Assembly: GCA_902788995.1 (NCBI GenBank)
Contig: CADAMO010000001.1
Coordinates: 8,746-72,745 of the forward strand
Source: Oscillospiraceae bacterium
GTDB taxonomy: Bacteria > Bacillota > Clostridia > Oscillospirales > Acutalibacteraceae
Reading direction: 5' to 3'
DNA: 64,000 bases
Under the pieces are notes generated by a model, which was not told the DNA's origin, searched no databases, and saw nothing but the letters and a program-made list of their open reading frames with translations. Below, one piece after another: positions 3,219-62,940 of this stretch. A program made the position numbers and the translations under genes. The number at the start of each line of letters is the position of its first letter. Position 1 is the first letter of the stretch.

Positions 3219-4301
3219 ATGGCGAAAAATAAGTTGCTGACGTTTATCGGAAAGCTGTCTGCCGTTGTTCTTTCGGCGGGCCTGCTGATCGGTGTGCTCA
3301 ACCGGTTTTACGTCAACGGATATTATTACAGGGACGTATACAGTGAGATCGATAAGATGTACGATGTCCCCTATGGCATTCAGATGGTCAACCTCGGCAC
3401 CAGCCACGGCCTTGCCTCATTTCAATATCCGGAGGACGGCGTGACGCGGTATAATCTGGCGCTGTCCGGTGAGGATATCTACCACGATTTTGCAACGCTC
3501 AAACAGTTTGCCGATCATCTGGCGCCGGGATGCATCGTCGCGCTTCCCACGTCTTACTTTTCATTCTGTATGTCCACGGAGGAACCGTCGCAAAAGCGTT
3601 ACTACGCCTATCTGGACCGGGAGTACCTCAGAGGTTTCAGCTATGAGACGCTGATCAACGCGAAATATCTGCCGGTCCTGCGCAGCGGGGAATTCATCAT
3701 CAAGGACCTGATCAAGGATCAGGAGCTGGACGTCGGCGCAGCCATGATGGACGAGGACATGGAAGCGCCGGAATCGGACGTTGAGGCGCTGTCTTCTGAT
3801 GCTTTCGCTGAGTCGGCGGTCCCTGTCGATTCGTCCGATACTGCGGCGCTGAACGATCTTGCGCAGGATTATGCGCTGACGGATCAGGAAAAGCTGGAGA
3901 AAAACGCAGAACTGGTCTCCCACGCCGCCGGACGGGTGGAAAGCTGGCGCTCCGGCTATATGACGGCGGGACGGCGGTATATTGCGGAAAACACACGGAT
4001 CCTGACCGAAATGGTTCAATTCTGTTATGAGAACGGTTTCCGGCCGCTGCTGGTCACTACGCCGATTTACAAGGCGCTGAATGACAATTTCAGTGAGGAA
4101 GAGCTGCGCGTCTGTTATTTCGACCCGATGCGTGAAGTGGCGCAGAAAACCGGCGTCCCTTATCTGGATCTTTCCCATGACGCGGTTTTGTCCGCCACGC
4201 CGGATTACTACGGTAACAGCGACCACATGAACCGCTACGGCGCGGCGGCGTTCTATGAAGTATATACTGCCTATCTGAAAACGATCGGTTATCTGAATTG
4301 A
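3219..4301 (+). CDS. Membrane-anchored DltD/AlgJ-like (SGNH-like) acyltransferase partner of the MBOAT
   Basis: GGAGG at 3204-3208 lies 10 nt before ATG 3219. N-terminal TM anchor, NLGTSHG and C-terminal NSDHMN motifs, and position directly after an MBOAT gene. Family assignment is inferred, not searched. Confidence 0.55.
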   Translation: MAKNKLLTFIGKLSAVVLSAGLLIGVLNRFYVNGYYYRDVYSEIDKMYDVPYGIQMVNLGTSHGLASFQYPEDGVTRYNLALSGEDIYHDFATLKQFADHLAPGCIVALPTSYFSFCMSTEEPSQKRYYAYLDREYLRGFSYETLINAKYLPVLRSGEFIIKDLIKDQELDVGAAMMDEDMEAPESDVEALSSDAFAESAVPVDSSDTAALNDLAQDYALTDQEKLEKNAELVSHAAGRVESWRSGYMTAGRRYIAENTRILTEMVQFCYENGFRPLLVTTPIYKALNDNFSEEELRVCYFDPMREVAQKTGVPYLDLSHDAVLSATPDYYGNSDHMNRYGAAAFYEVYTAYLKTIGYLN

Positions 4302-4310
4302 GGTGACGAT

Positions 4311-5285
4311 ATGGCGTTGATTTCCGTCATCATTCCCGTTTATAATACGAAGCCCTACCTGAACGCCTGTCTGGAATCCGTCGTCGGGCAGACTTACCGC
4401 GATCTGGAAATCATTCTGGTGGACGACGGCTCCACCGACGGCAGCGGGGAACTCTGCGACGAATGGGGACAAAAAGATTCAATAATCAAAGTGGTCCACA
4501 AAAAAAACGGTGGCCTTTCTTCCGCGCGTAACGCTGGAATGGCAATTGCGAAAGGGGATTACTTTGGTTTCGTTGACAGCGACGACGTCATCAGCCCCAA
4601 AATGTTTGAGGTCCTTTTACATATGGCGGTTGAGACCGGTGCCGATATTGCTCAATGTGGCTACGTCTGTTTTTCTTCTTATTCAGCACATATTTTTAAC
4701 TGCAATAACACCGATCCCGCCATCCGCTATTATGATGCACATGACGCAGTCCGATCACTTTTTATTGACGAAGACGTCAACGTCATCTGCTGCAATAAGC
4801 TTGTGAAGCGTTCTGTCGCAAAAAAGATCCCGTTTGAGGAAGGACGTATCAATGAGGACGTGCTTTGGACCTTCCGCGCTGTTTCAAAATCCGCAAAAAC
4901 AGTGGTCACGCAGGAGCCTCTTTACGGCTATTTTCAGCGGGAAGGCAGCATCATGAACAGCCGCTATACCGCCAAGCGGTTTGACGGCATTTATGCGCTG
5001 GAACAGCGTGCAAAAGAAGTGAAAGCGGTTTTTCCCGATCTGTTCCCGATGGCGGAAAGACAGTATGTCGGTGGCTGCATGTATCATTATCAGTGGCTGT
5101 GTCGCCTGCCCGCCTGTGATGAGTACAAGATCTACCGAAAACAACTCCATCAAAAGTTTTTGGGGGCCGATCTGAAGGCTGTCTACTCGGTCTCCGGACC
5201 GAAATATAAGATCTGGTATACGATGTTTCGGAAACTGCCGGCTTTGACCTGTTGGGTCCGGAATCAATTGAAGATAGGATTATGA
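4311..5285 (+). CDS. Family 2 glycosyltransferase
   Basis: ISVIIPVYN..LVDDGSTDGS..GFVDSDD motifs. Confidence 0.9.
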   Translation: MALISVIIPVYNTKPYLNACLESVVGQTYRDLEIILVDDGSTDGSGELCDEWGQKDSIIKVVHKKNGGLSSARNAGMAIAKGDYFGFVDSDDVISPKMFEVLLHMAVETGADIAQCGYVCFSSYSAHIFNCNNTDPAIRYYDAHDAVRSLFIDEDVNVICCNKLVKRSVAKKIPFEEGRINEDVLWTFRAVSKSAKTVVTQEPLYGYFQREGSIMNSRYTAKRFDGIYALEQRAKEVKAVFPDLFPMAERQYVGGCMYHYQWLCRLPACDEYKIYRKQLHQKFLGADLKAVYSVSGPKYKIWYTMFRKLPALTCWVRNQLKIGL

Positions 5286-23501: not shown

Positions 23502-23568
23502 CGGTGCGGGTCTCCAGTGGAGACCTCTGCCGAAGGCAGAAGCACCGACCGAGCCGGCAGGCGAGACC
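23502..23568 (+). repeat. Conserved structured element R1, copy A
   Basis: 63-nt core (23506-23568) is 59/63 identical to 28138-28200. It contains hairpins GGTCTC-CAGTG-GAGACC, TCTGCC-GAA-GGCAGA and GCC-GGCA-GGC, plus an enclosing helix CGGTGC (23502-07) / GCACCG (23542-47). Confidence 0.7.
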
Positions 23569-26568: not shown

Positions 26569-28089
26569 ATGATGATAATGCGATATATGAAAAAACTGAC
26601 GGCGCTGCTGCTGTGCGCCGCGCTGCTGTTTGCCTGCTGTGTGCCGGCCTTCGCAGCGGATGCGCTGCCCGAGAGCGAGCACGACTATGCGAACAATCTG
26701 GAACAGCGTTGGGAGTACACCTATCCCGGCGAAGTCAAGGGCCTGTTCGTCACCTTTTCAGCGGATACGTGGGTGGAGGAGTACAGCGGATGGATCCGGA
26801 TCGACGACATCGTGGAGAACGGTGCGGTCACCGTCGGCGGCATGGAAAAGAACATCATTTTCCCCACGCTGAAAACCGGCGACGTGATCGTGATCTACGG
26901 TGAGAACGAACAGTACGTGGGCAGCTACCGGGGCGGCTCGCTGGCCGGCAAGACGGTTTTTGTGCCCGGCAGGTCTTTCTCCGTGGTGCTGATCACCGAC
27001 GGCTCGGTCACCGGCTACGGCTTCCGGGTGACGGCGGTGGAGCCCTGTCCGGACGACTACGTCCGGGAGATCACCTTCTGCCCCGGCGAAGGGCTCGAGC
27101 CGGTCACCGAAATCTTCACGGCGGATCAGACCGTGTATTTTGACGACCGGTATTATCAGCGCGACGGCCTTGCCTTCGTCGGCTGGTCCGCTGCTGAAAA
27201 CGGTCCTGTCGCCTTTGACGCCGACGGGGAAACCGTCGCCGCCGAGGTGCCCGCCACGCTTTACGGCGTGTGGGTCCCGCTGGCGCTGGGACGGGAGGAG
27301 GTCTTCTCCTTCTATAATTCAAGCTGGTATTTTGACGTGGACGATCAGGACCACTACTATATGACCGCGGAGGATTACCGCGCCATGCAGGAAAACCTGT
27401 TCAAAAACTTCGGCGTCGGACCCTATCCCACCCCCGTGGTCTCCATCGTGCTGGCAACCTACCGGGACTGGGATTTCGCCGGGTCCTGCTACGGCATGTC
27501 GGTGGTGACGGCGCTGCAGCACTACGGGCTGATCGATATCCTGCCCATGCAGAACGCCGCCTGCATGAACGACATGCAGCCGGACGAGGCGCTGATCAGC
27601 CTCATCAACTATTACCAGACCCAGACGGCCACCAGCTTTCCGGCGGAAAACAAGGCGCTGGTCAAGGGTTCGCCCAACATGCGCCAGCAGTTCCGCGACC
27701 TGTACCGCACCGTATCCGGGGGAAACATCGTGATCCTGACCTACTTCCGCGAGGGCATGAAGGAGATCACCGAGGCGCACGTGATCCTGCTGACGGGCTG
27801 CTACACCACGGCGGAGGGCGATCTGGCGTTTATCGTTTACGACTGCAACTCCGGCGACTATGAATCCGGCTGGTATGACGAGGTGTTCCGCGTGCCGGCG
27901 GGCGGCGACGCGGCGGTCTACGACGGCGACGTCATTGACGCGTTTTTCTGGACCGACGATTTCAGCCGCTTCCAATCCTTTGATATCAATAAAAAAGGCA
28001 CCCCGCTGGCGTGGTACCTTTCCTACTTCCGGCACGTGATCGAGGTGCTGGTCTCGTTTTTCCGGATGCTGAGCAATATCGGGAAATGA
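26569..28089 (+). CDS. Secreted protein with Listeria-Bacteroides-type repeat and a papain-like Cys/His motif
   Basis: Signal peptide ..CCVPAFA/ADA. FVGWSAAENGPVAFDADGETV repeat. FAGSCYGMSVV .. EAHVILLTGCY .. YDCNSGD resembles a Cys-His-Asp/Asn peptidase core. Start could be 26572 or 26578. Confidence 0.6.
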   Translation: MMIMRYMKKLTALLLCAALLFACCVPAFAADALPESEHDYANNLEQRWEYTYPGEVKGLFVTFSADTWVEEYSGWIRIDDIVENGAVTVGGMEKNIIFPTLKTGDVIVIYGENEQYVGSYRGGSLAGKTVFVPGRSFSVVLITDGSVTGYGFRVTAVEPCPDDYVREITFCPGEGLEPVTEIFTADQTVYFDDRYYQRDGLAFVGWSAAENGPVAFDADGETVAAEVPATLYGVWVPLALGREEVFSFYNSSWYFDVDDQDHYYMTAEDYRAMQENLFKNFGVGPYPTPVVSIVLATYRDWDFAGSCYGMSVVTALQHYGLIDILPMQNAACMNDMQPDEALISLINYYQTQTATSFPAENKALVKGSPNMRQQFRDLYRTVSGGNIVILTYFREGMKEITEAHVILLTGCYTTAEGDLAFIVYDCNSGDYESGWYDEVFRVPAGGDAAVYDGDVIDAFFWTDDFSRFQSFDINKKGTPLAWYLSYFRHVIEVLVSFFRMLSNIGK

Positions 28090-28094
28090 GAAAA

Positions 28095-28129
28095 GATGAA
28101 AGATGAAAGATGAGAGATGAGAGATGAGA
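28095..28129. repeat. Heptad array, left arm of cassette I1
   Basis: GATGAAA GATGAAA GATGAGA GATGAGA GATGAGA, five tandem 7-mers starting 6 nt after the stop at 28087-89. Confidence 0.9.
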
Positions 28130-28131
28130 GC

Positions 28132-28217
28132 CGGAGCGCGGGTCTCCAGTGGAGACCTCTGCCGAAGGCAGAAGCGTCGACCGAGGCGGCAGCCGAGACC
28201 CTGCGGCCGGCGTTTTA
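28132..28217 (+). repeat. Conserved structured element R1, copy B (with closing stem)
   Basis: Core 28138-28200 is 59/63 identical to copy A. GCCGG..GCG..GGGTCTC at the 5' end can pair with GAGACCC..GCG..CCGGC at the 3' end. A GNRA hairpin ATGGGC-GAAA-GCCCAT follows at 28226-28241. Confidence 0.7.
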
Positions 28218-28246
28218 TAATGGGTATGGGCGAAAGCCCATCCGTT

Positions 28247-28279
28247 TTTCATCATTCCGCTTTCATCTTTCCTCTTTCG
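28247..28279. repeat. Heptad array, right arm of cassette I1
   Basis: TTTCATC ATTCCGC TTTCATC TTTCCTC TTTCG.., complementary in register to the left arm (12-nt perfect GAAAGATGAAAG match). It ends at the tcdA stop codon. Confidence 0.85.
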
Positions 28280-28987
28280 TTAACGTCCGATCAGGGCGTT
28301 GACCACATACTCCGCGATGCGCAGGCCTGCGGCGGAGGGAATAAAACTGATGCTGGACGGGGGCGTTTTGCCTCCGTCTTCTTTGATATCGTACTGCGGC
28401 GGCGCCGGGGGATCGGGGGAGTAGAGCACCGTGACCTTTTTCAGCCCCGCCTCTTTATATTTCCGGCGCATCACCCGGCACAGGGGGCAGTATTCCGTCT
28501 GGTTGATGTCGGCGATGCGGAAGCCGTCGGACCGCAGCTTCCGGCCCGTGCCCATGGCGGCGATCAGCGGAACGTTCTCCGCCGCGCATTTCACCGCGAT
28601 GGCGGTCTTGGCCCTCGTGTCGTCGATGGCGTCCACACAGAAGTCGTAGGACCCTTCAAAAAAGCCGTCAACGTTTTCCGGCGTCACAAAGGCGGCCGCC
28701 GTGCGCACGGCGCAGTCCGGGGCGATGTCCAGCACCCTGGCGGCGGCCACGTCGGTTTTGTGCTGCCCTACGGTGGAATGCAGCGCGTAGAGCTGCCGGT
28801 TGATGTTGGAGAGGGCCACCGTGTCGCCGTCCACCAGCGTCAGCGCGCCCACGCCCGCCCGGGCCAGCGCCTCCACCACGTAGGAGCCTACGCCCCCCAG
28901 ACCGAAGACGATCACGCGGGCGCGCAGCAGCTTGTTCAGATTGTCCTCGCCCAGCAGGGCGGCGGTGCGGCGGTGTTCCTCTTTCAT
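28280..28987 (-). CDS. tcdA: tRNA threonylcarbamoyladenosine dehydratase (ThiF/E1-like)
   Basis: RVIVFGLGGVGSYVVEALARAGVGALTLVDGDTVALSNINRQ and the TcdA/CsdL-like length. Confidence 0.85.
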   Translation of the reverse strand: MKEEHRRTAALLGEDNLNKLLRARVIVFGLGGVGSYVVEALARAGVGALTLVDGDTVALSNINRQLYALHSTVGQHKTDVAAARVLDIAPDCAVRTAAAFVTPENVDGFFEGSYDFCVDAIDDTRAKTAIAVKCAAENVPLIAAMGTGRKLRSDGFRIADINQTEYCPLCRVMRRKYKEAGLKKVTVLYSPDPPAPPQYDIKEDGGKTPPSSISFIPSAAGLRIAEYVVNALIGR

Positions 28988-30591
28988 TGCGCGGCCTCCT
29001 CCGTCACCCGTTCCCGGAAGGCCAGGAACCGTTCGTTGTCCATGGGGTAACAGGTGAAGCTGATCTCGCCCAGCTCTTCTTCAATGACCTTGAGAACGTG
29101 TTCCCGGGAGGTCTTCGCCTCCAGCGCCTTCAACGCGGCCACGTCCTGAAGGGCGTCGAAGAACACCTTCTGCCGCAGGGAGGGCAGCGGCTCGCCGTCT
29201 TTGCCGGGGTAGACCACGAAGGCGTCCCCCGCCGGGAAGGCCCCTCCCGCGTCCGTCTCTTTGAAGGGATCCACGGGGCGGCGGGAGAGCTGCGTATAAT
29301 AGAAGTTATACCCCCACTGCAAAAAGCCGTCGCAGTCATACCGGTACAGCAGCGTGCCGAGAATGCGGTTGCGGATGGAGGGGAAGGCGATGAAGCGGTT
29401 GGGCAGCTCGTCGTTGTACTGCCCGCAGCAGTAATAGGTCCAGAGCTTGGGCACGTTGCCCGCAAAGGTTGGCGCCGCCTGAAGGCTGGGCACCGGCGTG
29501 CCGATCAGCCCCTCTTTGTAGAAATCATAGTCGGAGATGGCGTCGATGTGCTCGTAGGCGCGAAAGTATTCGTGCAGCGTGGCCGCGGTGCGGCGGTAGC
29601 GGGGCAGGTCCTTCAGCCCCGGCTCATCCGAGCAGTGGACGAGGCAGCGGTCCGTGATCCCTTTTTGGTCGGTATAGTCTTTGAACGCTGCGCCGAACTG
29701 CCGCAGAAAGCTGGTGTACCCCTGTGAAACGGAGTCGTTCTCCCAGCCGAAAATACGGCGGTAGCCTGCGGAGGTCTGCGCCATGATCTTCGGCGCGTGG
29801 CGCGCCCCCCACTGGGTGAAGAAATGGGAGATCTCGAAATACGATATCCCGCAGCGGCGCGCCGTGTCGATCCAGCGGTCCAGCTTGTCAAAGCCGAAGG
29901 TGTAGGTATAGCCCTTTTTGGTTACGTCCACCAGCTGTACGGTGGGGCGCTCGCCCCCTTCCTCCGTATCCAGCGGCGGCGTGAATACGGGCGTCAGCAG
30001 CACGTTGACCCCGTGGGCGGCGGCGTTGCGCATGAAGCTCTCCACGATCCGCCAGTAGTCCTCGCTGAAAACCTCCACGCCGTAATAGGTCGCAAGACAA
30101 TCGGAATGGAACCAGTTGACGTGGCGCAGCGTCTGGGGCGGCAGCGCCGTCGGCGAGACCTTGACGGCCGCCTTTGCGCAGACGGTCTCTGTCCCCTCCG
30201 CCGCCGTCAGCGTCACGGCGTGGTCGCCCGCCTTTTCGCCGGTGAATTCCGCCCACAGCACGGCGGGCACCCCGGCTTTGACCGTCAGCTCCCCCTCAAA
30301 GGGCGTCAGCAGGTCGGGATAGTCGCCGCTTTTTCCTTCGTTCAACAGGGTGCAGTTGCGGGCGTTTTCATAGATCGCCAGCCCCACGGGCACCTCCTGC
30401 ACCGCAAAAAGGCGGCAGGGGAGCGGGCTGTCGGCATTGACCGTCAGACGGACGTCTTCCTCCGAAACGAAGACGAACTGCAGGCTGCCGCGTTCCCCCC
30501 GCAGCAGCGCAAGACGCCCATGGGGAGCCGGCAGCGGCGCGCCGGGAAAAATTTTTTCAAGTGAAGACAGAATTGTTACCCGAACGGACAT
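28984..30591 (-). CDS. DUF4091 domain protein (putative glycoside hydrolase-like)
   Basis: ATG at 30591 preceded by GGGAGGGG. Overlaps tcdA by 4 nt. The family call is from overall sequence recollection. The listed start at 30672 lacks an SD. Confidence 0.6.
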   Translation of the reverse strand: MSVRVTILSSLEKIFPGAPLPAPHGRLALLRGERGSLQFVFVSEEDVRLTVNADSPLPCRLFAVQEVPVGLAIYENARNCTLLNEGKSGDYPDLLTPFEGELTVKAGVPAVLWAEFTGEKAGDHAVTLTAAEGTETVCAKAAVKVSPTALPPQTLRHVNWFHSDCLATYYGVEVFSEDYWRIVESFMRNAAAHGVNVLLTPVFTPPLDTEEGGERPTVQLVDVTKKGYTYTFGFDKLDRWIDTARRCGISYFEISHFFTQWGARHAPKIMAQTSAGYRRIFGWENDSVSQGYTSFLRQFGAAFKDYTDQKGITDRCLVHCSDEPGLKDLPRYRRTAATLHEYFRAYEHIDAISDYDFYKEGLIGTPVPSLQAAPTFAGNVPKLWTYYCCGQYNDELPNRFIAFPSIRNRILGTLLYRYDCDGFLQWGYNFYYTQLSRRPVDPFKETDAGGAFPAGDAFVVYPGKDGEPLPSLRQKVFFDALQDVAALKALEAKTSREHVLKVIEEELGEISFTCYPMDNERFLAFRERVTEEAAQ

Positions 30592-34955: not shown

Positions 34956-35683
34956 TGCGGACCGCGATCGTGACGGGCGGCGCAAAAGGCATTGGCGCCG
35001 CCGCCGTCAGACTCCTGTGCGAACAGGGTTTTTGCACAGCGATCAACTATCATACGTCAGAGGAAAAGGCGCTTGCCCTTTCCTCTTTCCTTGTTTCAAA
35101 GGGGTACGACGCCTTCCCCGTCAAGGCGGACGTGACCGATCCCGCGCAGGTGCGGGAAATGGTAGAAACGGTATTATCCCGCAGCAATTCCATCGACGTG
35201 CTCGTCAACAACGCCGGAATTGACCATTGGCAGCTGTTCGATACCGTCACCGACGAACAATGGCGGCGCGTGATCGACGCGGACCTGACCGGCGCGTTCA
35301 ACTGCTGCCGGGAGGTCCTTCCCGTCATGGTGAGGCAAAAATACGGCCGCATCGTCAACGTGGCCTCCGTCTGGGGGCAGGTGGGCGCTTCCTGCGAGGC
35401 GGTCTATTCCGCCGCCAAGGCAGGCGTCATCGGGCTGACCAAGGCGCTGGCCAAAGAGGCGGCCCTCAGCGGCGTCACCGTCAACTGCGTCTCTCCGGGG
35501 GCCATCGCCACGGATATGATGCGCCGGTTCAGCGAAGCGGAGATTTCCGCCTTCTGTGAAGAGGTGCCCATGGGGCGGCTCGGCACGCCGGAGGAAGCGG
35601 CAAGTGCCATCGCGTTTTTTGCCTCCGAAGAGGCGTCCTATATCACCGGTCAGGTGCTGGGCGTCAACGGGGGCATGGTGTAG
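34955..35683 (+). CDS. SDR family oxidoreductase (FabG-like 3-oxoacyl-ACP reductase)
   Basis: TGGAKGIG, NNAG and YSAAK motifs. Its TAG stop (35681-83) lies inside a REP-like unit. Confidence 0.88.
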   Translation: MRTAIVTGGAKGIGAAAVRLLCEQGFCTAINYHTSEEKALALSSFLVSKGYDAFPVKADVTDPAQVREMVETVLSRSNSIDVLVNNAGIDHWQLFDTVTDEQWRRVIDADLTGAFNCCREVLPVMVRQKYGRIVNVASVWGQVGASCEAVYSAAKAGVIGLTKALAKEAALSGVTVNCVSPGAIATDMMRRFSEAEISAFCEEVPMGRLGTPEEAASAIAFFASEEASYITGQVLGVNGGMV

Positions 35684-35702
35684 CGCGGCACTTCAGTGCC
35701 GC
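35680..35702 (+). repeat. Solo REP-like unit
   Basis: GTAGCGCGGCACTTCAGTGCCGC, one mismatch to the left unit of the five doublets. Overlaps the SDR stop codon. Confidence 0.85.
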
Positions 35703-35737
35703 TTCAGTGGGAAGTCGTCAGTCGGAAGTCGGTAGTC
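35703..35737. repeat. Heptad array, left arm of cassette I2
   Basis: TTCAGTG GGAAGTC GTCAGTC GGAAGTC GGTAGTC. Confidence 0.85.
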
Positions 35738-35863
35738 TGCAAACCGATTCCCCGTTCTGATGAATAAGTCCGCTGAACGAAAGAAGTTGAGCATGAGCCA
35801 TTGAAAATCACAGTCGGAAAGATACTATTCCGTTACGGATGAGATACGGAGTTTGCCCATAGG

Positions 35864-35891
35864 GACTTCCGACTTCCGACTGATGACTGAC
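35864..35891. repeat. Heptad array, right arm of cassette I2
   Basis: GACTTCC GACTTCC GACTGAT GACTGAC. Its reverse complement matches the left arm in register (about 23/28). Confidence 0.85.
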
Positions 35892-35914
35892 AACTATACA
35901 AGAGGGGGAGACAA

Positions 35915-37386: not shown

Positions 37387-37389
37387 CAG

Positions 37390-37424
37390 GCAATAGGCAG
37401 TAGGCAATAGGCAATAGGCAATAG
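37390..37424. repeat. Solo heptad array I3
   Basis: GCAATAG GCAGTAG GCAATAG GCAATAG GCAATAG, starting 4 nt after the stop at 37384-86. No complementary arm seen nearby. Confidence 0.9.
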
Positions 37425-37472
37425 GGATGTGCCGTCTTGCTGTTGCCGGCGTTTCAATAGCTACGCGTTGCG

Positions 37473-42148: not shown

Positions 42149-42172
42149 AGCGGAACCTGTTTGGTATTGGCC

Positions 42173-42323
42173 GGTAGCGCGGCACCTCAGTGCCGCTGTT
42201 TACTGAAGTATCATTCAGGAAACCGGAAGAATGAGGAAAAAACCGTATTTTCCGGGAGGCGTATATTGTTCAGGAGATAAAACAGTTGTTGACGTCAAGC
42301 GCGGCACTGAGGCGCCGCGATAC
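42173..42323 (+). repeat. REPIN-like doublet M1
   Basis: Left unit GGTAGCGCGGCACCTCAGTGCCGC. Right unit GCGGCACTGAGGCGCCGCGATAC (2 mismatches). AAACAGTTGTT lies 10 nt before the right unit. Confidence 0.85.
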
Positions 42324-42357
42324 GGAAAATCAACCGAAAAATCCTTCTGCCCCGCTG

Positions 42358-45173: not shown

Positions 45174-45219
45174 TTTTTGTCTCCTTTTTTTGAAGGGCGC
45201 GATCGGATTTCGCTGACCC

Positions 45220-45364
45220 GGTAGCGCGGCACCTCAGTGCCGCTATTTGCCAATGAAATATTGTTGAATTAGAAAATCAGAGGAAGCATCGTTTTACAGG
45301 ATGCTGTTTTTTTTGATCTGAAACAGTTGTTGTTGCATGAGCGGCACTGAGGTGCCGCGCTACC
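45220..45364 (+). repeat. REPIN-like doublet M2
   Basis: Perfect 24-nt inverted units at both ends. Interior holds a plus-strand terminator-like hairpin AGCATC/GATGCT plus T8 (45285-45314). AAACAGTTGTT lies 9 nt before the right unit. Ends 4 nt from the kinase stop. Confidence 0.9.
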
Positions 45365-45368
45365 GGAA

Positions 45369-46976: not shown

Positions 46977-47131
46977 GGTAGCGCGGCACCTCAGTGCCGC
47001 TGACGATAGATGTAACTGCTATACAGGTTATCGTTTGGAACCGGCAGCTTTAAACTCACGGTCTGCCAGAGGGGGACAATGCGTAAAACAGATTGTTATT
47101 GCCAGAAGCGGCACTGAGGTGCCCCGCTACC
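46977..47131 (+). repeat. REPIN-like doublet M3
   Basis: Left unit perfect. Right unit GCGGCACTGAGGTGCCCCGCTACC (1 mismatch). AAACAGATTGTT lies 10 nt before the right unit. Ends 5 nt from the recR stop. Confidence 0.9.
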
Positions 47132-47136
47132 GGGGA

Positions 47137-48096: not shown

Positions 48097-50109
48097 TTAC
48101 TCTACTTTGATATTGTATTTCCTGCCGAGCGTTTCCAGCGCGGCTTCACTGACGTATTTGGAGAGATAGGCGGGGTTGATAAAGGTCTTGATCTTGTTTT
48201 CCCCCAGCCGGATGAGGATGGTGTTGCCCGCGATGGAGGCGGTGGAATCCGTCAGCTGGCCGATCAGCGGGGCGAACCGCTTTTCCGTGCCGAGGATGAT
48301 CTGCATCCACGTGCGGCCGTCGATGGGCGTCGCCGTGGGCTCATCCGTCAGCACCTGCGTCTGCGGGGCGGCGGAGGGTCCGCCTGCCGCATCGAAGGGG
48401 AGCGGTACCGTGGCGTCCCCGGCCTGCGGGCTTCCGGCGTGTTCCTGCATAAAGGCGTCAAAGTCAAATCCGTCGTCCGGGGGGGGCGGCGGGTTGCTGC
48501 CGGCGGAGGACCCGCTTCCGGCGTGTTCGCTCATGAACGCGTCAAAATCAAAGGGCTCGTCGTCCGTCTCTTCCGTTCCGGCGGCGGCGAATCTGTCCGC
48601 AAAGCTGCCGGAGGAGGGGCGGTCAGCGGCGAAACCGGAGAAGGAGGGTCGCTGTTCACGGCTGTCGCGTTTTGGCGTCGGAACGGTCGCTTCCCCGAAA
48701 GGCTCGTCCGGCGGCGGCGCGTCGTCAAAGGGCGGTGCGTCGTCAAAGGGGGGCGCCTCGTCGAAGGGCGGTATATCGTCAAAGGGGGGCGCGTCGTCGG
48801 AAAAAAGCGGAATCGTCGCGTCGTTTTCGGAGAGTTCCGCCGGTGCGGCGACGGGGGCGGGGGCCGGCTTTGGCGGGGCGGCCTGCTGCCGCGGCGAGGG
48901 CGTTTCAACGGGCGTTTGAGCAACGGGCGTTTCGGCGGGGGAGAAGGCGACCGCGCCGCTTTTCAGCCGGGCGATCTCTTTTTCCAGCGCGGCCACCCTT
49001 GCGGTCAGCGCGGTGACGGAAACGTCGGTCTCCGGGCGGCACAGGCGGATCAGCGCCATTTCCGCCTCAATGCGGCGGTTCTGGGTGCGGCGGATGGCCT
49101 CCGACGCGGCGGCCAGCACGCCCAGCGCGTACAGCACGTATTCCTGGGTAAACGCTGCGGCGGAGGTTTTGATCCGCTCCAGCTCTTCGGCGGTGCAGAC
49201 GATCAGGTTCTCCGGGTGGGCCACCGTCTTCACGATCAGAAAACTGCGGAACCGGTCGATCAGCTCCACGCAGAGGCGCTCCGTATCGCAGGAGGCCTTG
49301 TGCAGCTCGTCTAAAATGGAAAGGCACCGGGCCGTGTCCTTGGCGGCGACGGCGTCCATCAGGTCGTAAATATATTCGCGGTTCATCAGACCCGCGGAGG
49401 AGGAGACCACGTCCACGGTCACGTCGTTTGCCACGGAAAGGCAGCGGTCCAGCAGCGAGAGCGCGTCCCGCATACCGCCGTCCGCAATGCGGGCGATCAG
49501 CACCGCCGCGTCGTAATCCAGCGACGCGTTTTCCGCCTTGGCGATCTCCACCAGCCGGTCCGCGATGCAGGCGGGCTCGATCCGGCGGAAGTCAAACCGC
49601 TGGCAGCGGGAGAGGATCGTGGAGGGGAGCTTGTGCACCTCGGTGGTGGCCAGAATGAACTTCACGTGCTCCGGCGGCTCTTCCAGCGTTTTCAGCAGCG
49701 CGTTGAAGGCCGCAATGGAGAGCATGTGGACTTCGTCGATGATATAGACCCGGTAGGTGGCCTGGGAGGGGGTGAAGTTGACCTCGTCCCGCAGCAGGCG
49801 GATATCGTCCACACCGTTGTTGCTGGCGGCGTCGATCTCCACGATATCCAGCACGGAGCCGTTGTCGATGCCGCGGCAGATCTCGCACTCGTTGCAGGGG
49901 TCGCCGTTCACCGGGTGCAGGCAGTTGACCGCCTTGGCGAATATTTTCGCGCAGGTGGTTTTGCCCGTCCCCCGCGAACCCGTGAACAGGTAGGCGTGGG
50001 CCAGGCGGTTTTCCCGGATCTGATAGGAGAGTGTCTTGGTGACCTGGGGCTGGCCGATCACGTCGGCAAACACCTGCGGCCGCCATTTACGGTAGAGGAC
50101 GCGGTACAA
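48097..50109 (-). CDS. dnaX: DNA polymerase III subunit gamma/tau
   Basis: TTG start. LYRKWRPQVF, GSRGTGKTT (Walker A), zinc module CLHPVNGDPCNECEICRGI. Long low-complexity linker with internal repeats. Confidence 0.93.
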   Translation of the reverse strand: MYRVLYRKWRPQVFADVIGQPQVTKTLSYQIRENRLAHAYLFTGSRGTGKTTCAKIFAKAVNCLHPVNGDPCNECEICRGIDNGSVLDIVEIDAASNNGVDDIRLLRDEVNFTPSQATYRVYIIDEVHMLSIAAFNALLKTLEEPPEHVKFILATTEVHKLPSTILSRCQRFDFRRIEPACIADRLVEIAKAENASLDYDAAVLIARIADGGMRDALSLLDRCLSVANDVTVDVVSSSAGLMNREYIYDLMDAVAAKDTARCLSILDELHKASCDTERLCVELIDRFRSFLIVKTVAHPENLIVCTAEELERIKTSAAAFTQEYVLYALGVLAAASEAIRRTQNRRIEAEMALIRLCRPETDVSVTALTARVAALEKEIARLKSGAVAFSPAETPVAQTPVETPSPRQQAAPPKPAPAPVAAPAELSENDATIPLFSDDAPPFDDIPPFDEAPPFDDAPPFDDAPPPDEPFGEATVPTPKRDSREQRPSFSGFAADRPSSGSFADRFAAAGTEETDDEPFDFDAFMSEHAGSGSSAGSNPPPPPDDGFDFDAFMQEHAGSPQAGDATVPLPFDAAGGPSAAPQTQVLTDEPTATPIDGRTWMQIILGTEKRFAPLIGQLTDSTASIAGNTILIRLGENKIKTFINPAYLSKYVSEAALETLGRKYNIKVE

Positions 50110-50247: not shown

Positions 50248-50374
50248 GCCTCTGTCACACGGCGTGCAGGCGGACTGTGTCGCACGGGCTGACCGCTTAA
50301 TGCTGCTCGGTTCCCCGCCTGACATGGTTCGCGGCGCTCCGTCGCACAGGACCAACACGCCGCATGACAGAAGC
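50248..50374 (-). ncRNA. ffs: Signal recognition particle RNA (core helix 5/8)
   Basis: The minus strand reads ..GUCAGGCGGGGAACCGAGCAGC.., matching the conserved domain IV GUCAGG..GGAA..AGCAGC. It is closed by a 19-bp helix GCUUCUGUCAUGCGGCGUG / CACGCCGUGUGACAGAGGC (with G-U pairs). It sits in the canonical position upstream of dnaX. Confidence 0.8.
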
Positions 50375-52426: not shown

Positions 52427-52460
52427 AATGCGGAATTCGGAATGAGGAATTCGGAATTAT
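52427..52460. repeat. Heptad array, left arm of cassette I5
   Basis: AATGCGG AATTCGG AATGAGG AATTCGG AATTAT. Contains the stop codon (52457-59) of the enclosed gene. Confidence 0.92.
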
Positions 52461-52804
52461 TTAGGTTGCGTTTTTGTGATAGAAGTCAATAATTTGATAA
52501 GCTCTTCGCAATTATAATACAGTGGTTCAAACGTTGATTTGTCAATGAAATCGCTTTCATACAGGAGTTCAAGCCAATAGGCAGTTTCATCTGCTTCTTT
52601 TAGTGCAATATTCATTTTTGAATAAAAGTCAGGTTTGCTTTGCCCTCTTTGCGCTTCACGGATATTTGCGCCGATGCTTGTGCCGCTTCGCAAAATCTGC
52701 TTTGATAATACGAATTCGTGTTCAACGCATAAATATCGGTATAAACGGATAATCTGAAGGGCAAACGCTTTGCTTTTATCTCTGACTGCATTATTGTAGA
52801 TCAT
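52457..52804 (-). CDS. Four-helix-bundle protein (23S rRNA intervening-sequence protein / Avd family)
   Basis: KSKAFALQIIRLYRYL..LSKQILRSGTSIGANIREAQRGQSKPDFYSKMNIALKEADETAYWLELL, the hallmark of this family. 21 G+C in the 60-nt line at 52501. Confidence 0.88.
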   Translation of the reverse strand: MIYNNAVRDKSKAFALQIIRLYRYLCVEHEFVLSKQILRSGTSIGANIREAQRGQSKPDFYSKMNIALKEADETAYWLELLYESDFIDKSTFEPLYYNCEELIKLLTSITKTQPK

Positions 52805-52823
52805 TTCAGACCCTTCCCTCTCA

Positions 52824-52857
52824 ATAATTCCGCATTCCGCATTCCGAATTCCGCATT
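52824..52857. repeat. Heptad array, right arm of cassette I5
   Basis: Reverse complement reads AATGCGG AATTCGG AATGCGG AATGCGG AATTAT, 32/34 identical to the left arm. Confidence 0.92.
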
Positions 52858-57122: not shown

Positions 57123-57138
57123 GAGGGGCAATATCATC

Positions 57139-57289
57139 GTAGCGCGGCACCTCAGTGCCGCTCTTGACAAATGTAGCTTTTGAAACGGATTTTGGAATTA
57201 TCTGCCGTTTTCTCTTACATAATGAGCGTTAAGGCAACTATTTATAATAGTTGTTTGTGCTTATAGCGGCACTGAGGTGCCGCGCTACC
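57139..57289 (+). repeat. REPIN-like doublet M4
   Basis: GTAGCGCGGCACCTCAGTGCCGC .. AATAGTTGTT-N10-GCGGCACTGAGGTGCCGCGCTACC. Confidence 0.9.
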
Positions 57290-57434
57290 GCATGGGGCAA
57301 CATCTCGACAACCCTCAATTTGCCTCCTTCTGTCGTTCAATCAACTTTCTTTAAATAATATTCATACTTCTTTCATAAACCGTTCGTTTTTTCGATGCAA
57401 AATAGAATCAATATTCAAAAAGGGGAAAGAAACA

Positions 57435-62680: not shown

Positions 62681-62777
62681 GAATTTCGTCAGAAAAACGT
62701 CAGTTCCCCTTGATAAAAACCGAAAACAAACCTTCCCCCGTTGTGCTACCATATAGGCATAGCGGGGGACGCTTTTT

Positions 62778-62928
62778 GTAGCGCGGCACCTCAGTGCCGC
62801 TATTCGCCGGAGTTGCATTTCGGTAATCTGAAAGATAGGGATCATCGTTGTATTATCAGCGAAACCCTTGTTTTCAGTTCACAAAACAGTTGTTTGCGTT
62901 CCGAGCGGCACTGAGGTGCCGCGCTACC
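62778..62928 (+). repeat. REPIN-like doublet M5
   Basis: GTAGCGCGGCACCTCAGTGCCGC .. AAACAGTTGTT-N10-GCGGCACTGAGGTGCCGCGCTACC. Confidence 0.9.
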
Positions 62929-62940
62929 GCTTCCCGTACT

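Follow-up and report, generated by a model that had tools for sequence, protein, structure and literature searches.

The window analyzed here is a stretch of 64,000 nucleotides (nt) from an Oscillospiraceae bacterium of the family Acutalibacteraceae (assembly GCA_902788995.1, contig CADAMO010000001.1, positions 8,746 to 72,745 of the forward strand), and the element under study fills the spacer at 28087-28282, between two convergent genes. One of these genes is an open reading frame (ORF) of 506 amino acids (aa), whose product was assigned to no family in Pfam or NCBIfam. The other was named tcdA in a preliminary description of this DNA; the TcdA model is indeed its best NCBIfam match, but the score of 152 bits is under the model cut-off of 304 and the Pfam match is to ThiF, and "ThiF/TcdA-like" is a safe name. 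The spacer consists of two arms built of tandem 7-nt units (heptads), which enclose a cargo that includes one copy of a 68-nt structured repeat, R1. The features of the spacer, with the R1 helices denoted P1 to P4, are as follows:

28087..28089, + strand: TGA stop codon of the 506-aa ORF 26569..28089, inside a first, degenerate heptad that precedes the five GATGARA units of the left arm
28090..28130, + strand: purine-rich left arm, with five exact GATGARA units at 28095-28129
28131-34 and 28207-10: local outer stem of R1 copy B, CCGG with CCGG
28133..28201, + strand: R1 copy B, the 68-nt structured repeat, 94% identical over 63 nt to copy A (aligned stretch of copy A, 23506-23568)
28136-39/28174-77 and 28141-47/28151-57: helices P1 and P2 of R1 copy B
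28158-63/28167-72 and 28185-87/28192-94: helices P3 (GAA loop) and P4 of R1 copy B
28222..28250, + strand: GNRA hairpin region, with the stem ATGGGC-GAAA-GCCCAT at 28226-28241, then CCGTTTTTCA
28243..28279, + strand: pyrimidine-rich right arm, a degenerate complement of the left arm
28280..28282, - strand: stop codon of the convergent ThiF/TcdA-like gene 28280..28987 (235 aa), seen as TTA, the reverse complement of TAA

All parts of the spacer that had been described previously, i.e., the stops, the GATGARA arm, R1 copy B, the GNRA hairpin and the pyrimidine arm, were confirmed, although the claimed start of the left arm, with its five units, was off by one base. Tandem Repeats Finder (TRF) gives a period of 7 for both arms, with 5.3 copies and 96% matches on the left, and 4.6 copies and 72% matches on the right. 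For the 199-nt spacer, the folding energy on the + strand is -95.8 kcal/mol (z -7.8), a value reached by 0 of 200 shuffles; on the - strand it is -90.3 kcal/mol (z -8.6), which again no shuffle attains. The arm-arm duplex on the + strand has -53.2 kcal/mol and constitutes a long stem of terminal inverted repeats. The spacer had also been said to contain no ORF. Three mechanically called ORFs do cross it (28117..28302 and 28124..29050 on the + strand, and 27986..28255 on the - strand), each extending into the antisense of a flanking gene; however, none of them can be conserved, because the orthologous spacers are absent or wholly different in sequence. Similarly, the view of the whole spacer as one unit holds in so far as a hairpin-closed cassette fills it from edge to edge, but R1 is an independent, multi-copy module rather than an integral part of such a unit, being found without heptads in phages, in a TnpV-like ORF and beside tRNA fragments. 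No Rfam 15 covariance model matched the spacer or R1 at the gathering threshold, and a permissive Rfam search of both returned only chance C/D-box matches (E >= 0.6). The window contains no rRNA, and the spacer is not an insertion in helix 25 or 45 of 23S rRNA.

Using relatives of the 506-aa protein, which were taken from a protein database and from contig look-ups, we compared the orthologous gene junctions (percentages in this comparison are protein identities); a metagenome scan for relatives of the 506-aa protein returned none. Loci L012 and L013 (97%) carry the cassette of the window, 4 of its 199 nt being substituted; four changes between the window and L012 do not suffice for a compensation test. 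A different cassette occupies the same junction in L011/L022 and L016 (78%), with another cargo and without R1. Its arms consist of three or four GGAGAGC units on the left and GCWCTCC units on the right, which are complementary to each other and run from one stop codon to the other. L011 and L016 differ in the number of units, 3 versus 4, and do so on both arms; that is, the two arms of orthologous cassettes stay complementary and their unit number changes jointly. The filling is different again in L015 (81%), where the arm AATGCGCAATTCGGAATGCGGAATG, built of GGAATGC units, is near-identical to the left arm of another cassette of the window (at 52427). This locus also contains a homologue of the GNRA hairpin of the window, followed by ATTGCTA heptads, at which the contig ends, and it is without R1. 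Finally, in L017-L020 (76-77%) and L021 (75%) there is no spacer, and the two genes overlap by 8 or 20 nt. What these empty sites show is a gene overlap and not one copy of a target sequence; the last few codons of both genes differ between the empty and the filled alleles. In a neighbor-joining protein tree, L021 is the midpoint outgroup, and L017/L020 branch within the group of filled sites; most simply, the genes overlapped ancestrally, and a cassette was gained once or more. The junction is, accordingly, polymorphic for the spacer (empty in L017-L021), and the orthologous spacers do not display ordinary drift without arm covariation, being empty or built of different heptads. That the spacer is a lineage-specific insertion is well supported. 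It should be noted that the contigs of L012 and L013 stop ~200 nt after the 97%-identical orthologue, just past the cassette, and that many copies of R1 are also located at contig ends; the heptad cassette and R1 repeats appear to break short-read assemblies.

The spacer had been likened to the cassette at 52427-52857, and the two do belong to the same architectural class, the latter carrying a PF05635/TIGR02436 gene. The window contains a further non-coding member as well:

52427..52857, - strand: sister cassette, with GGAATKC heptad arms of 38 nt that are 92% complementary
52457..52804, - strand: gene in this cassette, for a 115-aa PF05635/TIGR02436 four-helix-bundle protein
35706..35895, + strand: second non-coding heptad-armed cassette, with GGAAGTC arms of 32 nt that are 84% complementary, and a 126-nt cargo

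The product of the gene 52457..52804 matches PF05635 ("23S rRNA-intervening sequence protein", E 3e-30) and TIGR02436 (E 1e-33), and is closest to the PDB entry 2RLD. The cassette at 35706..35895 sits between two co-oriented genes and abuts a hairpin at 35679-35703 that is similar to repetitive extragenic palindromic (REP) sequences. We collected 80 loci with relatives of the PF05635 protein of the window from GTDB species genomes, 79 of which have usable flanks. The loci come from six sources, i.e., Clostridia, Planctomycetota, Chloroflexota, Kiritimatiellia, Bacteroidota and Gracilibacteria; one locus, in the metagenome-assembled genome (MAG) CAMVNL01 (uncultured Clostridia bacterium, SRR8387714_bin.3), is 100% identical to that of the window. 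Significant inverted arms, well above shuffles, were found in 34 of 79 loci, and further loci have weaker heptads. The strongest internal period was 7 in all 32 arms of at least 18 nt, and the units follow a loose consensus across phyla (RAATKCG, TGARTKA, GAGATGA). Within 200 nt on either side of PF05635 genes, heptad arrays reach 42-56 times the density measured in background loci (586 kb, coding DNA included). In 754 kb of loci not selected for PF05635, we found 17 arrays of period 7, whereas no other period from 4 to 12 was represented by more than 4. In 23 of 42 armed cassettes, an upstream ORF of the same orientation has its stop inside the left arm or at most 45 nt away from it, and in six Oscillospiraceae/Acutalibacteraceae MAGs (L030, L031, L032, L039, L041 and L043) a heptad-armed PF05635 cassette is located between smpB and the gene for transfer-messenger RNA (tmRNA; Rfam, 153-185 bits). 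A metagenome scan for three GATGAGA units returned at least 120 loci. One of them is the metagenome locus L217, in which a PF05635 ORF lies between GAGATGA and TCATCTC arms; therefore, the arm type of the spacer also exists with a gene. The spacer combines two inverted arrays of at least three tandem 7-nt units, an enclosed cargo and a location at a gene end, which are the defining features of the class, and its assignment to the heptad-armed PF05635 cassettes is well supported. Our literature searches returned no publication in which paired heptad arms are described as generally present at PF05635 genes, or in which non-coding derivatives of these are described.

PF05635 proteins that are 64-70% identical to that of the window occur in ruminant-gut MAGs of Thermoguttaceae (Planctomycetota), Leptolinea (Chloroflexota) and Kiritimatiellae (L023-L044); homologues this similar in the ruminant guts, across phyla, suggest that the PF05635 cassette may have spread horizontally. 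PF05635 genes without heptad arms (L055-L059, L073-L076 and L082-L102) have upstream arrays of short GC hairpins, which are separated by CTTCA(T/C) or GTGAAG motifs and often flip their orientation midway. The longest heptad array that we saw in a Clostridia MAG locus (L178, 5853-6080) comprises ~230 nt of TCGGTTY/TCAGTTT heptads changing to CTGTTCA heptads.

The hairpin at 28226-41, together with the U-run CCGTTTTTCA, has the structure of an intrinsic terminator (GC-rich hairpin followed by a U-run) on the + strand only, whereas the long outer hairpin formed by the arms does not have this structure. Judging from this model, the GNRA hairpin and the U-run most likely terminate the transcript of the upstream gene. 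The hairpin is not exclusive to the cassette of the window, since its homologue belongs to the L015 cassette, the arms of which differ. In an alternative view, the entire structure evolved in place under host selection, as a bidirectional terminator or insulator of transcript ends: overlapping convergent genes would have gained a hairpin and, later, R1, and the arms would have grown by slipped-strand expansion of 7-nt units and template switching between the arms of a quasi-palindrome. This explanation, which we consider unlikely, would account for the terminator-like hairpin with its U-run inside the cassette, for an A/G-rich 5' arm and a U/C-rich 3' arm on either strand, for the different unit numbers in the close relatives L011 and L016, and for a junction that was filled at least twice with different sequences in relatives, as selection at the site would give. 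Bidirectional intrinsic terminators are, likewise, hairpins between convergent genes that are A-rich on the 5' side and U-rich on the 3' side on both strands. However, the stem of the cassette consists of ~40 bp of heptads around ~110 nt of structured cargo, and its U-rich tract is paired; a base-paired U-rich arm is not how intrinsic terminators work. Moreover, a consensus scan found no terminator-like site for the gene on the - strand, and near-identical arms occur at unrelated loci, as in L015 and the 52427 cassette of the window. The same kind of arms encloses PF05635 genes in six phyla and is found at 35706-35895 and between smpB and ssrA, where bidirectional termination makes no sense because the genes are co-oriented.

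The cargo of the spacer was analyzed separately, as R1 has a second copy in the window:

23502..23568, + strand: R1 copy A, intergenic, with non-heptad inverted arms gcacggcgcattgcgcc / taatgcgccgt

A degenerate pattern retrieved at least 72 copies of R1 (62 unique), with the consensus GGGGYGCGGGTCTCC-GGT-GGAGACCTCTGCCGAAGGCAGAAGCRCCGACCGAGSCGRCAGSCGAGA(CC), from rumen/gut Clostridia MAGs, with several copies per genome, and from Ruminococcus phages of Heliusvirales. In the four-helix model of R1, 98.7% of cells are paired, with changes on both sides in five pairs; the model has a covariation score of 0.113, versus 0.058 in shuffles (0/500 as high), and sliding the partners lowers it to 0.04 or less. 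Mutual information across the alignment is highest for two column pairs, both of which are predicted base pairs, one in P1 (U-A 31, C-G 18, U-G 3) and one in P4 (C-G 41, G-C 10), and the minimum-free-energy fold of copy A is the covariation-supported model. It should be noted that the invariance of P2 and P3 is uninformative because the search pattern fixed parts of both helices. We found no match for R1 in Rfam, in plasmids or in the literature.

R1 is located inside two further heptad-armed cassettes with other units (L178 and L008), and in four MAGs (L003, ~4240-4330 on the - strand; L118; L176; L182) it divides a TnpV-like ORF, each time at the same codon; in L003 and L118, the upstream TnpV-like part reads through R1 to a stop that overlaps the downstream ATG (ATGA). 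In L006 (330-540) and L007, R1 is bordered on one side by a tRNA 3' fragment and on the other by a 20-nt repeat of this fragment (AAGTCCTTCTGCCCCTGCCA), and these flanks look like the scar of an attachment site. ARAGORN found no intact tRNA at these two loci, the 3' fragment being all that is present, and a tRNA/tmRNA scan of the R1 loci returned none. R1 behaves like a small mobile structured element. The possibility that R1 is always placed at the tip of a long, locus-specific hairpin was rejected, with clearly complementary flanks in 11 of 64 copies, as was a role as a cis-regulatory element of fixed orientation, there being no orientation bias relative to neighboring genes (with crude ORF calling). 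The same two results bear on a further alternative, namely that the cassette is a small-RNA gene, in which R1 is a functional RNA and the heptad arms are a processing stalk for RNase III, similar to the stems that flank rRNA. The strong conservation of R1 and its four helices with covariation would be expected of such a gene, as would its nesting in the heptad-armed cassettes of three loci that are not orthologous (the window, L178 and L008), and the G.U-type pairs favor the given strand of R1 (22 versus 11). Nevertheless, we regard this alternative as very doubtful: most copies of R1 have no heptad arms and show no preferred orientation, R1 interrupts the TnpV-like ORF, the orthologous cassettes at the junction are without R1, and no promoter-like site was found in the spacer region.

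The S23p-type intervening sequences (IVS) of Coxiella burnetii, Leptospira, Xanthomonas and Brucella resemble the cassette in that terminal inverted repeats close the insert into a long stem; their cargo is an ORF for a PF05635 four-helix bundle, as in the 52427-52857 cassette, the stem heptamers of Coxiella vary in copy number, and the literature regards IVS as selfish. The IVS of C. burnetii is a selfish element of 428 nt in helix 45 of 23S rRNA, with an S23p ORF, a 28-bp terminal stem and tandem heptamers GACAGAT, of which a strain has two or three copies; RNase III excises the element in vitro, with one cut at the start of the first repeat (PMC4990558). In contrast to IVS, which reside in helix 25 or 45 of 23S rRNA, the spacer cassette lies between two protein-coding genes, and it has neither an ORF nor a detectable remnant of one, its cargo being R1 and the terminator-like hairpin; cleavage by RNase III, which is documented for the Coxiella IVS, is for the spacer cassette only presumed. 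According to published reports, no other tandem repeats are as abundant as heptamers in the intergenic DNA of prokaryotes, and there is "no clear clue" to what they do; paired inverted arrays that enclose a cargo, or a link to PF05635, are not described in the two papers concerned (bioRxiv 10.1101/309039; PMC4679880). The STRR elements (short repetitive units repeated in tandem) of cyanobacteria and the TAACTGA repeats of Beggiatoaceae, cyanobacteria and Bacteroidetes are, like the arms, tandem 7-nt intergenic units, many of them with stops; however, they have been reported as direct arrays, often upstream of start codons. Miniature inverted-repeat transposable elements (MITEs) are also short and non-coding, with terminal inverted repeats and a gene-carrying counterpart, whereas the cassette has no target-site duplication, no transposase-encoding parent and no near-identical family, and its arms are internally repetitive.

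The explanation that we tentatively prefer, at somewhat less than even probability, is that the spacer is an inserted, non-coding, IVS-like heptad-armed cassette, i.e., the same kind of element as the S23p-type IVS, which is tolerated at gene ends and has R1 and the hairpin as cargo. According to this explanation, the cassette would be placed in the transcribed 3' end of a gene, and the two arms would then fold back together, packaging the insert as one long hairpin that RNase III could cut, by analogy with the rRNA intervening sequence. Owing to the period of 7, the TGA in GATGAGA would present stops in all three frames to ribosomes arriving from either side, so that an insertion at, or slightly inside, the convergent gene ends would truncate the genes cleanly, without fusion to junk. 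The host would either tolerate the element or use it as a transcript-end insulator, and the element itself may be selfish or neutral. A function as an RNA hairpin is favored by the location of cassettes directly downstream of co-oriented genes, by arms that stay complementary despite the replacement of their sequence, and by the precedent of RNase III in Coxiella. A unit that contains a stop and recurs every 7 nt blocks each of the three frames within 21 nt; in the left arm (28090..28130), TGA closes 3/3 frames inward and 0/3 outward. Across the arms, stop triplets number 312 inward versus 214 outward, the bias being inward in 32 cassettes versus 10; such a bias is consistent with insertion at gene ends or just within them, and with the changed C-termini of the filled sites.

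Several observations weigh against this explanation. The inward bias of stops could equally be a by-product of a purine-rich inward strand, and there are units without any stop, such as GGAGAGC and GGAATKC. In 43 PF05635 cassettes, the mismatches between the arms comprise 33 that are G.U in the sense direction, 48 in the antisense direction and 168 that are non-wobble. G.U enrichment, as a sign of RNA-level selection, was not seen in these 43 cassettes, and selection on the RNA stem of the arms is unproven; because there is no wobble enrichment, the complementarity of the arms may be kept or generated at the level of DNA. The arms of the spacer form 8 G.U pairs on the + strand versus 2 on the - strand, an excess that arises because the terminator U-run lies inside the arm: the inner unit of the right arm is this U-run, and it pairs with GAGAG through G.U. 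The internal terminator would, if the model is correct, also end most + strand transcripts before the right arm is made. As for the class, the heptad excess at PF05635 genes would be nearer 5-8 fold if intergenic DNA alone were compared, and a strict inverted partner was found for 15 of 121 metagenomic GATGAGA arrays. No remnant of PF05635 was detected in the spacer cargo by blastx (best E ~2.6), and the flanks of the spacer, GGGAAATGA and GTTAACG, share no target-site duplication. Within the window there is no transposase and no second copy of the spacer arms, and we know of no mobility mechanism for the cassette.

If complementarity is a matter of DNA, the arms could be arrays of 7-bp protein-binding sites, possibly for a PF05635 pentamer acting in trans, which mark mobile or recombining ends like the multi-site ends of some transposons. 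The predominance of non-wobble mismatches points in this direction, as do arms that look like independent mixtures of a few unit variants (e.g., GGAATTC and GGAATGC), the loose unit consensus across phyla, and the close PF05635 homologues (~70% identity) in different phyla from the same habitats; in addition, PF05635 is related to Avd, the accessory protein of diversity-generating retroelements (DGRs) (PMC10053308). Yet the window has five heptad types versus one PF05635 gene, nuclease and recombinase domains are absent from the family, there is no target-site duplication, and S23p proteins are not known to bind DNA. We consider this alternative quite improbable.

Heptads are present at two other places in the window, in both cases as unpaired arrays:

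37388..37425, + strand: AGGCAAT x5, directly after a stop codon
50148..50182, + strand: TGAAAGT x5, beside the gene for signal recognition particle (SRP) RNA

The AGGCAAT unit forms a paired mini-cassette in L178 (22-109). The TGAAAGT array and the 3' end of the SRP RNA gene (50261-50358, - strand) are ~80 nt apart; this gene was identified by the Rfam model Bacteria_small_SRP (55.5 bits). REP sequences, bacterial interspersed mosaic elements (BIMEs) and REP doublets forming hairpins (REPINs) are, like the cassette, non-coding, hairpin-forming and extragenic, with locations after stop codons or between convergent genes; they also show presence/absence polymorphism and may be mobilized in trans. 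They differ in that a genome has one conserved palindromic unit of 20-40 nt with the motif GTAG, whereas each cassette has its own tandem 7-nt unit. The arms of the spacer are built of heptads and are unique in the window, and the GTAG family of the window (GTAGCGCGGCACCTCAGTGCCGC) is a separate repeat. A REP/REPIN-like family is found at 42171-42328, 45218-45368, 46977-47135, 57138-57293 and 62777-62932, with the single copy at 35679-35703 mentioned above; its inverted arms of 24-26 nt (GTAGCGCGGCACCTCAGTGCCGCT and the complement), each itself a hairpin, enclose ~100 nt. There is also an 18-nt tandem repeat (4.8 copies, 48703-48798) in apparent coding sequence.

Taken jointly, these data permit a broader interpretation, which is conceivable but doubtful: paired inverted heptad arrays would constitute a cross-phylum family of insertion cassettes, in which PF05635/S23p represents the gene-carrying form, the 23S IVS is a special case in rRNA, and decayed or cargo-swapped forms make up a share of the unexplained intergenic heptamers. 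The period of 7 would be selected for three-frame stops from either side, and R1 would be a second, new mobile element nesting in such cassettes. R1 is, in its own right, a candidate new structured RNA or DNA motif, which rumen Clostridia have in common with their phages. Where rRNA intervening sequences come from, and what their S23p protein does, are decades-old questions (PMC4990558). The heptad-arm architecture encloses S23p genes in six phyla, occurs outside rRNA and can lose the gene, and heptad-arm cassettes come and go at a single orthologous junction. The relatives include empty sites as well as three different fillings, which makes this junction a clean natural experiment for RNase III processing, insulation and the mechanism of insertion. 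The locus ties intergenic heptamers to the rRNA intervening sequences, and makes both testable.

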